The position numbers were made by a program, and so were the translations under genes. Positions 60,962-62,361 of a stretch of 64,000 nucleotides of DNA are shown one piece after another (within the stretch, counting starts at the first letter, position 1; each line of letters begins with the position of its first letter). Source of the DNA: a phage; the sequence record PZ386966.1; one strand, written 5' to 3'. A model generated the notes under the pieces. That model was given only the letters and a program-made list of their open reading frames with translations, was not told where the DNA came from and searched no databases.

Positions 60962-61039
60962 GGGAGATTGACGGTAATTGGTAAACCTACCATCCTTAGA
61001 AGTTGGTGTTTGAGGGTTCGAATCCCTTGTCTCCTACCA
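60962..61039 (+). tRNA. tRNA with anticodon UAG (Leu-type) but short variable arm
   Basis: Loop CTTAGAA; acceptor GGGAGAT/GTCTCCT; T-arm GAGGGTTCGAATCCCTT. Confidence 0.4.
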
Positions 61040-61046
61040 AATTAAT

Positions 61047-61122
61047 GCAGGTGTAGCAAAATGGTTATGCGGCTGACTCTTAATCAGTAAGACGATGGGT
61101 TCAATTCCCTCCACCTGTACCA
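61047..61122 (+). tRNA. tRNA-Lys (CUU)
   Basis: Paralog of 59820 tRNA with compensatory stem change; loop CTCTTAA. Confidence 0.5.
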
Positions 61123-61128
61123 GACATT

Positions 61129-61204
61129 GGGGTCATAGTTTATATGGTTAAAATTCGAGTTTTGCAAACTTGGGAACTGAGTTCAATTCTCAGTGACTCC
61201 ACCA
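61129..61204 (+). tRNA. tRNA-Ala (UGC)
   Basis: Loop TTTGCAA; G3:U70 wobble in acceptor stem as expected for Ala. Confidence 0.6.
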
Positions 61205-61210
61205 ATTAGT

Positions 61211-61285
61211 GCATCCATAGTTTAAACGGGAAAATTACAGTCTTCCAAACTGAGGTTGAGGGTTCGATTCCCTCTGGATGCTCCA
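61211..61285 (+). tRNA. tRNA-Gly (UCC)
   Basis: Acceptor GCATCCA/TGGATGC; loop CTTCCAA. Confidence 0.6.
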
Positions 61286-61292
61286 AATTAAT

Positions 61293-61369
61293 GCTGCTTT
61301 CGTATAATTGGCTATTACACATCCCTTGTAAGGATGGAGATGCGGGTTCAAGTCCTGTGAGCAGCACCA
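61293..61369 (+). tRNA. tRNA-Thr (UGU)
   Basis: Stem CATCC/GGATG with loop CTTGTAA; T-arm GCGGGTTCAAGTCCTGT. Confidence 0.6.
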
Positions 61370-61466
61370 ATTCAGAGGTCAAGTGAAAGACCGCTTTGAG
61401 TCAACTGAAGACCGTAACAAATTCCACGGAGTTGAGTTAGCGGCACAACTTCAGACCTCTTTTCAC

Positions 61467-61541
61467 ACTCGCTTAGTTTATATGGTAAAACATCACCCTT
61501 ACAAGATGAAGAAAAAGGTTCAAGTCCTTTAGTGAGTACCA
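61467..61541 (+). tRNA. tRNA-Val (UAC)
   Basis: Loop CTTACAA; T-arm AAAGGTTCAAGTCCTTT. Confidence 0.55.
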
Positions 61542-61542
61542 T

Positions 61543-61620
61543 GTTCCAGTATCCCAATTGGCAGAGGATGCAAGCTCAAACCTTGTATTAGTGACGGTTC
61601 GAATCCGTCTTGGAACACCA
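61543..61620 (+). tRNA. tRNA with anticodon CAA (Leu-type) but short variable arm
   Basis: Stem GCAAG/CTTGT with loop CTCAAAC; T-arm GACGGTTCGAATCCGTC. Confidence 0.4.
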
Positions 61621-61638
61621 ATTTAAAGAGGCTATTTA

Positions 61639-62196
61639 ATGAGATATTTGAAGTACGCTTCATGGATTTTCTTAGCTTTACTAGACCCAATTGCAGCAAT
61701 CCTAGCAGTTATCTTAGCACCTTTCGTAGTTCCATTCTACAGTGAGAAGAAAGGACACTTACCTTTTGGATTCAGATGGATGGAGACATATGATAACCCA
61801 ATTGATGGTGATGAAGGACACGTTAAAAGATGGGCTAATATTAGAAAGATTGGTAAGCTCGGTGTCTATTTGCAGAGAGTTGGATGGCTCTGGAGAAACA
61901 AAGCTTATAACTTCTCTTACCATGTGTTAGGAAGAGATGTAAAAGATGTTACTAAGTGGAAAGGTAATATCAATGTAAGTTCTAACCCTGAAGATAATCA
62001 GACTGGTTATCTCCTAATGTGGAACAGTAATGCTTGGGGATTATTCGCTTTTATCCCATCAATTAAAGTCTTTGGTAAACAGTTTTACTGGAGAATTTAT
62101 ATTGGATGGAAACTAAAAAGTGTTGTCCCAGAAGAAAGAGCATTCTCAAGGGAAAGAGTTATGTTGGCATTCTTTATTCATCCACTGAGAAAGTAA
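61639..62196 (+). CDS. membrane protein embedded in tRNA array
   Basis: N-terminal hydrophobic segment WIFLALLDPIAAILAVILAPFVVPF; AAAGAGG RBS. Confidence 0.5.
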   Translation: MRYLKYASWIFLALLDPIAAILAVILAPFVVPFYSEKKGHLPFGFRWMETYDNPIDGDEGHVKRWANIRKIGKLGVYLQRVGWLWRNKAYNFSYHVLGRDVKDVTKWKGNINVSSNPEDNQTGYLLMWNSNAWGLFAFIPSIKVFGKQFYWRIYIGWKLKSVVPEERAFSRERVMLAFFIHPLRK

Positions 62197-62204
62197 AGAT
62201 TTAA

Positions 62205-62280
62205 AGGGGATTAGTTTACAAGGTTAAAACCTCGGTCTTTGAAATCGAAGAAGTTGGTTCAATTCCAACATCCCCCGCCA
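62205..62280 (+). tRNA. tRNA-Gln (UUG)
   Basis: Loop CTTTGAA; unpaired 1:72; T-arm GTTGGTTCAATTCCAAC. Confidence 0.5.
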
Positions 62281-62282
62281 AT

Positions 62283-62361
62283 GCTCCATTACTCCAATTG
62301 GCAGAGAGGCCAGACTTAAAATCTGTGTTATGTATCGGTTCGAATCCGATATGGAGTACCA
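62283..62361 (+). tRNA. tRNA with anticodon UAA (Leu-type) but short variable arm
   Basis: Loop CTTAAAA; T-arm ATCGGTTCGAATCCGAT perfect. Confidence 0.4.

Follow-up and report, generated by a model that had tools for sequence, protein, structure and literature searches.

Three tRNA-Leu genes with a short variable loop in the tRNA cluster of a Felix O1-like phage

Three tRNA genes with leucine anticodons lie in the 64,000-nucleotide (nt) stretch of phage DNA from sequence record PZ386966.1 that was analysed here as a whole and is referred to as the window. The window region matches Felix O1-like Salmonella and E. coli phages at 97–98% identity, and on this basis we assign the window to a Felix O1-like phage. 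The three genes belong to a tRNA cluster that is syntenic with the Felix O1 cluster at 23699–30180, and all 24 tRNAs that ARAGORN called in the window's cluster are on the + strand. The cluster and the three genes are as follows:

58267–63556, + strand: phage tRNA gene cluster, with 24 ARAGORN tRNAs plus one tRNA-Glu found by Rfam only, and a few small open reading frames (ORFs) in between
60962–61039, + strand: tRNA-Leu(UAG), type I, 78 nt (ARAGORN, Rfam 40.0 bits, domain parse)
61543–61620, + strand: tRNA-Leu(CAA), type I, 78 nt (ARAGORN, Rfam 44.0 bits, domain parse)
62283–62361, + strand: tRNA-Leu(UAA), type I, 79 nt (ARAGORN, Rfam 47.5 bits, domain parse)

The lengths include an encoded CCA in all three genes, and tRNA-Leu(UAA) is flanked by tRNA-Gln(UUG) and tRNA-Gln(CUG). 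Each of the three scored above the 29-bit gathering score of the Rfam tRNA model (RF00005), and their scores were among the lowest of the short-variable-loop tRNAs in the cluster. Public records of Felix O1-like phages and the 2010 Felix O1 genome paper list the same three genes as tRNA-Leu of 78, 78, and 79 nt. Neither those records nor that paper remark on a missing arm, and in some records at least one tRNA of the Leu stretch is labelled 'tRNA-OTHER' or is unannotated.

Parsing the ARAGORN folds gave anticodon loops CTTAGAA (UAG), CTCAAAC (CAA), and CTTAAAA (UAA), with variable regions of TGTTT (5 nt), ATTAGT (6 nt), and GTTATGT (7 nt), respectively. The long variable arm that is the hallmark of type-II tRNAs, a stem-loop of more than 10 nt, is absent from all three; what they have is the combination that defines type-I tRNA-Leu, namely a leucine anticodon and a short variable loop that measures 5 nt or more with position 48 counted in (PMC6614811). 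When 12 distinct short phage tRNA-Leu were submitted to RNAalifold, the consensus was a plain four-arm cloverleaf with no extra helix, and 17 of its 19 predicted pairs showed compensatory changes. A preliminary description made from the sequence letters had placed three short leucine-anticodon tRNAs here, with 5–7 nt in place of the long extra arm; the ARAGORN coordinates proved to be identical, and the domain parse bore out the loop sizes. It had also allowed that its folds might be off by register and had proposed ARAGORN as a check. That program returned the same anticodons and no canonical long arm, and the agreement of ARAGORN, Rfam, and RNAalifold on the fold rules out a register error.

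The corresponding host genes, E. coli leuW, leuX, and leuZ, are 85, 85, and 87 nt long with variable regions of 13–15 nt. The textbook rule puts a long arm on the tRNA-Leu of all organisms except animal mitochondria (review PMC9976931), and the three phage tRNA-Leu depart from that rule. Three other tRNAs of the cluster served as internal controls:

59191–59278, + strand: tRNA-Tyr(GUA), 88 nt, with a 15-nt variable arm (ARAGORN)
60616–60705, + strand: tRNA-Ser(UGA), 90 nt, with a long variable arm (ARAGORN, Rfam 31.1 bits)
63384–63476, + strand: tRNA-Ser(GCU), 93 nt, with a 21-nt variable arm (ARAGORN, Rfam 46.2 bits)

The variable regions of the two tRNA-Ser are about 21–22 nt. Because the tRNA-Tyr and both tRNA-Ser of the cluster keep long arms, the short form is leucine-specific and not an artefact of the software or of the genome. 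The signature AATTGG-N13-YTNAR-N15-18-GTTCRA matched exactly the three Leu sites in the window, compared with 0.01 expected by chance. Leu(CAA) and Leu(UAA) have a D-stem of three base pairs (bp) and the D-loop C-AAUUGGCAGA, and in Leu(UAG) an additional U ahead of A14 makes the D-arm slightly irregular. Separately, the control tRNA-Ser(UGA) is barely past the Rfam threshold of 29 bits, and its ARAGORN call has no terminal CCA; the other 23 ARAGORN-called tRNAs of the cluster end in CCA.

The Leu(UAG) and Leu(CAA) genes are base-for-base the same in phiSUSP1 (Suspvirus) and in Citrobacter phage KMM4 (Mooglevirus); phiSUSP1 also has the same Leu(UAA) gene, and the KMM4 copy of it is 1 nt different. 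For Leu(CAA), 292 phage records matched, 160 of them at 99% identity or more, and Leu(UAG) is 80–81% identical to the type-I Leu(UAG) of T5-like and Vequintavirinae phages. More distant phages of Erwinia and Cronobacter (Kolesnikvirus) have three short Leu genes of their own, with anticodons CAA, AAG, and UAA and lengths of 77–78 nt. We rejected decayed genes or pseudogenes because of the near-identity across phage genera, the compensation at 17 of 19 pairs, and the intact G18G19, T-loop, A73, and CCA; judged by these comparisons, the three genes are real, constrained tRNAs.

A wider form of the same doubt is that the genes are decaying or unused, or have a non-translational role as decoys, regulators, or processing signals, the host leucyl-tRNA synthetase (LeuRS) being unable to charge type-I tRNAs. 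E. coli LeuRS did not charge a Streptomyces type-I tRNA-Leu (PMC6614811), LeuRS touches the arm backbone (PMC12360207), and the 'tRNA-OTHER' labels or missing annotation could be taken in the same sense. However, the sequences are the same or nearly so across genera, pairs are maintained through compensatory changes, and among 161 diverse viral copies A73 was present in 156/159, U48 in 155/159, and an encoded CCA in 117; furthermore, the anticodon set complements the dominant CUG reader of the host. Conservation, covariation, A73, U48, CCA, and the anticodon set all mark a tRNA that has to be charged and has to decode, and we regard a defunct or non-translational role as very unlikely.

The features that specify leucine are present in each gene. 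The anticodons UAG, CAA, and UAA fall within the NAG/YAA set of bacterial tRNA-Leu, A73 is found in all three, and the variable loops all end in U48, the expected partner of A15. Read from the sequence, all three contain U8, A14, A15, G18G19, A20a, and the T-loop TTCGAAT, and the elbow set of U8:A14, A15:U48, G18G19, A20a, U54:A58, U55, and C56 is complete in each. The D-arm is of the Leu type, with a 3-bp stem, an unpaired 13:22, and the loop A14-A15-U-U-G18-G19-Y-A20a-R-A. The determinants of leucine identity in E. coli are A73, A15-U48, G18G19, A20a, and the D-loop/T-loop tertiary pairs; the anticodon and the long arm are not crucial there, and arm-less variants are still charged (PMC9976931). 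The pair 3:70 is G-C or U-A in the three Leu genes, and the alanine determinant G3:U70 is absent. E. coli leuW, leuX, and leuZ share with the phage genes the same three anticodons, A73, U48, the 3-bp D-stem, the unpaired 13:22, and a D-loop of AAUYGGUAGA. They differ in their 13–15 nt stem-loop arm, which the phage copies do not have, and the host Leu(UAG) has G37 rather than the A37 of the phage.

Isotype models lead to the same amino acid. In a 2025 paper on phage Sf14, tRNAscan-SE 2.0 ranked Leu first for Leu(CAA), at 49.1 versus 36.1 for the next model, and for Leu(UAA), at 60.2 versus 54.2 (PMC12482277). The Sf14 CAA gene is the same as the window's and its UAA gene differs by 1 nt; Sf14 Leu(UAG), at 7493–7569, is another type-I allele than that of the window, and its published isotype score is not transferable. 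We also scored the genes against anticodon-masked profile hidden Markov models for 21 classes, built on 2,413 tRNAs from other loci. The type-I Leu profile (Leu_I), trained on sequences collected by means of a pattern based on the same three genes, came first for CAA (44.6 versus 14.2 bits), UAA (48.4 versus 27.2), and UAG (31.7 versus 26.5). This masked classifier correctly assigned 19 of the 24 window tRNAs. The nearest neighbours of the three genes among 2,606 tRNAs were type-I Leu.

The preliminary description had raised an altered identity, or a suppressor-like or recoding function, as an explanation for the missing arm. For this there is no support in what the sequences offer: Leu anticodons, Leu-like bodies, and the E. 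coli leucine identity set, with no G3:U70. A suppressor tRNA was rejected because it needs a CUA, UUA, or UCA anticodon, and UAG, CAA, and UAA pair with CUA, UUG, and UUA. Likewise, an anticodon shift from an adjoining short-loop tRNA, such as one of the flanking tRNA-Gln, was rejected because the D-arm is of the Leu type and the closest of the 2,606 tRNAs are Leu. In its general form, the proposal is that another synthetase charges these tRNAs, or that they act as suppressors or frameshifters. It draws on the absence of the bacterial tRNA-Leu hallmark and the low general tRNA scores, on the A37 of Leu(UAG) against the host G37, and on Sf14, where the bodies of phage tRNAs drift and the anticodon of 13 of 26 tRNAs disagrees with the top-ranked isotype model (PMC12482277). 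Yet the anticodons pair with Leu codons and not with stops, the isotype models put Leu first for the CAA and UAA genes, the masked test does so for all three, and 3:70 provides no alanine determinant. Most other synthetases need their own anticodon bases, and these are absent from the three Leu genes. Misreading three of the six Leu codons across the phage proteome would also be very costly, and we consider a changed identity or a recoding role extremely improbable.

Over the 50 long ORFs of the window, the relative synonymous codon usage for leucine was CTT 1.59, TTA 1.46, CTG 0.99, TTG 0.89, CTA 0.65, and CTC 0.43, and TTA, TTG, CTA, and CTT together accounted for 806 of the 1055 Leu codons. 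The dominant Leu codon of the host is CUG, which is read by its major isoacceptor; the phage has no CAG-anticodon tRNA for CUG. In Sf14, TTA and CTA are significantly commoner in the phage than in the host (PMC12482277). The set of three anticodons fits ordinary codon supplementation.

One position of the anticodon loop stands apart. In the loop at 60997–61003, phage Leu(UAG) has A37 where host leuW has G37, and phage Leu(AAG) has A37 too. Among viral type-I Leu(NAG), A37 was found in 56 of 80, compared with 21 of 78 among the viral type-II genes. G37 is the site of m1G37, and with A37 in place of G37 these tRNAs would not depend on m1G37 methylation.

We think it likely that the three genes are functional phage type-I tRNA-Leu isoacceptors, which accept leucine and are charged by the host LeuRS. 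Their structure, identity elements, conservation, covariation, codon use, and distribution were observed, and we infer expression, leucylation by the host LeuRS, and use on the ribosome. Transcription of the Leu genes would go along with that of the whole + strand tRNA cluster, and host enzymes would process the transcripts, whose CCA is already encoded. The host LeuRS would read no anticodon and would rely on A73 and the D-loop/T-loop elbow, not on the arm, in charging them with leucine. In decoding, the UAA tRNA would read UUA and UUG, the CAA tRNA would read UUG, and the UAG tRNA would read CUA and CUG, together with CUU if its U34 is modified as in the host. The AT-rich phage makes heavy use of these Leu codons, which the host reads with minor isoacceptors. 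The missing arm itself is most simply explained as the loss of something bacterial LeuRS can do without. The seryl- and tyrosyl-tRNA synthetases are held to use the long arms of their tRNAs, which fits the long arms of tRNA-Ser and tRNA-Tyr in every phage examined. No synthetase is listed in the stretches consulted of the Felix O1 (~58%) and Sf14 (~54%) genome records.

Several points weigh against this interpretation. E. coli LeuRS failed in vitro with the type-I tRNA-Leu(CAA) of Streptomyces coelicolor, so far the single bacterial type-I tRNA-Leu to have been assayed, and the authors concluded that the enzyme charges only type II (PMC6614811). In crystal structures, K809 and R811 of E. coli LeuRS are salt-bridged to the variable-arm backbone (2025, PMC12360207), and loss of the arm may cost LeuRS affinity. 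The Streptomyces assay and the arm contacts are the chief arguments against ready charging of the phage tRNAs. The phage tRNA-Leu that have been studied experimentally are type II (T5, 85 nt; T4, 87 nt) and give no direct support; the T5 data were dropped as evidence of charging because T5 Leu(UAG) is itself type II at 85 nt, and for the same reason what the T5 record notes on suppressor conversion has no bearing on type I. Leu(UAG) combines its irregular D-arm with the lowest Rfam score (40 bits) and an isotype margin of only 5 bits, and the origin of the Leu_I training set also counts here. No experiment on these three tRNAs was found in the literature, and their expression and charging are inferred. 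With respect to the Streptomyces result, the phage tRNAs differ from the Streptomyces tRNA, with its C48, in having A15:U48, a pair reported to be required by E. coli LeuRS. If the host LeuRS does charge the three tRNAs, they would be proof from nature that an E. coli-type enzyme can dispense with the arm, and they would form a ready set of variants for mapping what such an enzyme needs.

Literature searches for arm-less tRNA-Leu, whether of phages or of tRNA arrays, turned up a single paper, the one on Streptomyces (Fan et al. 2019, NAR, PMC6614811), according to which almost all bacterial tRNA-Leu are type II and the minimum workable variable loop is five nucleotides including position 48. 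The loop of the S. coelicolor type-I tRNA-Leu(CAA) is 5 nt, and those of the phage genes are 5–7 nt. The Streptomyces tRNA coexists with type-II tRNA-Leu and a single LeuRS, and it has C48, whereas the phage tRNAs have U48 with A15. It is charged by its own LeuRS, aided by a specialised leucine-specific domain, whereas the phage tRNAs must use an E. coli-type LeuRS. Also unlike Streptomyces, the phage genes are virus-borne and all phage-encoded Leu isoacceptors are type I. The actinobacterial type-I Leu that we retrieved and some of the phage copies have in common the CCCAAUUGGCAGAGG D-arm and an NCAGU loop.

Animal mitochondrial tRNA-Leu also has a short variable loop, and its identity lies mainly in A73 and A14 (PMC9976931). 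Mitochondrial tRNAs are otherwise reduced and have a dedicated mitochondrial LeuRS, whereas the phage tRNAs keep canonical D- and T-loops, G18G19, and TTCGAAT. The tRNA-Leu of T4 and T5 resemble those of the window in being phage-encoded and in lying in tRNA clusters rich in homing endonucleases, but both are type II: T4 Leu is 87 nt, and T5 Leu(UAG), whose long arm is folded, is 85 nt. E. coli tRNA-Leu engineered to lack the arm are still charged via A73 and the D-loop/T-loop tertiary pairs (PMC9976931). Those variants are laboratory constructs, and the phage genes would be their natural, evolutionarily stable counterparts.

Arm-less tRNA-Leu are not confined to Felix O1-like phages. In eight loci from three unrelated enterobacterial phage lineages (Ounavirinae, T5-like Demerecviridae, and Vequintavirinae), 20 of 20 tRNA-Leu had variable regions of 5–7 nt, all with A73, and the variable regions in the same loci were 15–22 nt for tRNA-Ser and 11–15 nt for tRNA-Tyr. 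Several enterobacterial phage lineages thus have no tRNA-Leu other than the arm-less form. The signature pattern was found in at least 120 IMG/VR loci, and ARAGORN confirmed 161 short tRNA-Leu in 112 viral contigs, the copies whose A73, U48, and CCA counts were given above. These are 151 unique sequences, which fall into 119 clusters at 85% identity, and the GC content of their loci is 29–62%. A pattern open to either type returned a sample of 120 viral loci, in which the spacing was bimodal, with 45 type-I and 100 type-II matches; by ARAGORN, 53 of the Leu genes there are short and 134 are long. Roughly 30% of the sampled viral tRNA-Leu genes with this D-loop are arm-less.

In T5 (NC_005859), the Leu(UAG) slot at 5625–5709 is taken by an 85-nt type-II gene that has an HNH endonuclease gene as its neighbour. 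In the T5-like phage saus47N, a type-I gene of 77 nt at 5997–6073 occupies the same place next to tRNA-Ala. The type-I Leu(UAG) allele is found in only some T5-like phages, and by sequence comparison this is a swap of Leu(UAG) alleles between close relatives.

The same pattern was used to scan bacteria, with one genome per species; the matches listed were dominated by Actinobacteria and cannot show absence from Enterobacteriaceae. Most of the bacterial matches listed came from Actinobacteria (such as Mycobacterium, Nocardia, Rhodococcus, Corynebacterium, and Bifidobacterium) with just one chromosomal type-I gene, a Leu(UAA) or a Leu(CAA), 74–77 nt long. Other matches listed include dense tRNA arrays with 8–34 tRNAs in 8 kb, which came from Acidobacteriota, cyanobacteria, Polyangia, and Mycobacterium (L230, L232, L252, L270, L296, L298, and others). 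Nearly all Leu genes in the retrieved arrays are short and the Ser and Tyr genes are long, in loci that were selected for holding type-I Leu. As a side observation, ARAGORN called in arrays L230, L232, L252, L270, and L298 a tRNA-Ile(UAU) of 89–93 nt, far above the length of normal tRNA-Ile, which could reflect a long arm or an insert. The window's three Leu genes had no BLAST match in 5,426 complete E. coli genomes, the only species covered by that search. The three genes have long been annotated, and their architecture is that of a known, rarely noted type-I tRNA-Leu that is common in viruses and in mobile tRNA sets. The low scores, the 'tRNA-OTHER' labels, and the missing annotation mean that censuses of phage tRNAs may misjudge such genes.

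This distribution bears on why the arm was lost. One suggestion, which adds to the reading of the genes as leucine-accepting isoacceptors, is that arm loss evades tRNA-directed nucleases, of host defence or of competitors, for which the arm is a recognition or cutting site: the phage tRNAs would still carry leucine and would replace host tRNA-Leu destroyed in the course of infection. The variable arm has a precedent as a target in tRNA-Tyr (Retron-Eco7 and Septu), tRNA arrays have been discussed as possible anti-defence devices (PMC12803027), and phage Leu(UAG) differs from that of the host at positions 32, 37, and 38, changes of a kind linked to nuclease evasion (PMC10264068). Type-I Leu is also common in mobile tRNA sets, at ~30% of the Leu genes in the viral sample and nearly all of those in the retrieved arrays, given how these loci were selected. 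T4 infection may cut host tRNA-Leu in the extra arm, a possibility that was given no weight here. On the other hand, we found no nuclease that targets the variable arm of tRNA-Leu, and Tyr, the known arm target, keeps its arm in these phages. About 70% of the viral tRNA-Leu in the sample keep theirs as well, and Actinobacteria with a single chromosomal type-I Leu have no obvious link to defence. Bacterial Schlafen gives no support, as it cuts the anticodon arms of tRNAs with short variable loops and not type-II arms. We consider nuclease evasion unlikely; nevertheless, variable arms are now known targets of anti-phage nucleases, and arm loss is therefore worth testing as a counter-defence.

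A broader proposal is that arm-less tRNA-Leu are a selected hallmark of mobile tRNA sets, through nuclease immunity or through portability between the LeuRS of different hosts, and that the enterobacterial copies are natural type-I substrates of E. coli-type LeuRS. An E. coli-type LeuRS is currently described as charging only type II (PMC6614811), and we put this proposal forward tentatively, as one that is doubtful but could be correct.

The remaining observations concern the surroundings of the Leu genes. A promoter scan did no better than chance, with 16 sites compared with 13.4 expected. Between tRNA-Pro and tRNA-Glu, an ORF of 118 amino acids (aa) at 58361–58717 (+ strand) contains an HNH endonuclease motif (Pfam PF01844, E=8.9e-5); in Felix O1, the gap from tRNA-Pro to tRNA-Glu is only 8 nt. 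The tRNA-Glu(UUC) just 3' of this ORF, at 58719–58793 (+ strand), is a divergent allele: when it is aligned with the copies of Felix O1, Sf14, and KMM4, 37 of 75 positions are invariant. In the anticodon loop, CCTTCAA, it has C33 instead of U33, and it has A73 rather than G73; it was missed by ARAGORN and scored 55.4 bits with Rfam. From its sequence, the arrangement looks like a homing-endonuclease insertion with co-conversion of the adjoining tRNA.

Directly upstream of the tRNA cluster, at 56686–58101 (+ strand), lies a gene whose 471-aa product contains DUF2828 and DUF7788 and weakly matches von Willebrand A; it is named 'RNA-binding protein' in the Felix O1 RefSeq record, and the same position is kept in Sf14. 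The protein may have some part in the handling of tRNA or small RNA. Two conserved ORFs lie inside the cluster on the + strand, one at 61639–62196 (DUF7338, 185 aa, E=1.4e-62) and the other at 62585–63382 (DUF7217, 265 aa as listed, E=1.1e-87), and both are annotated as membrane proteins in some relatives.

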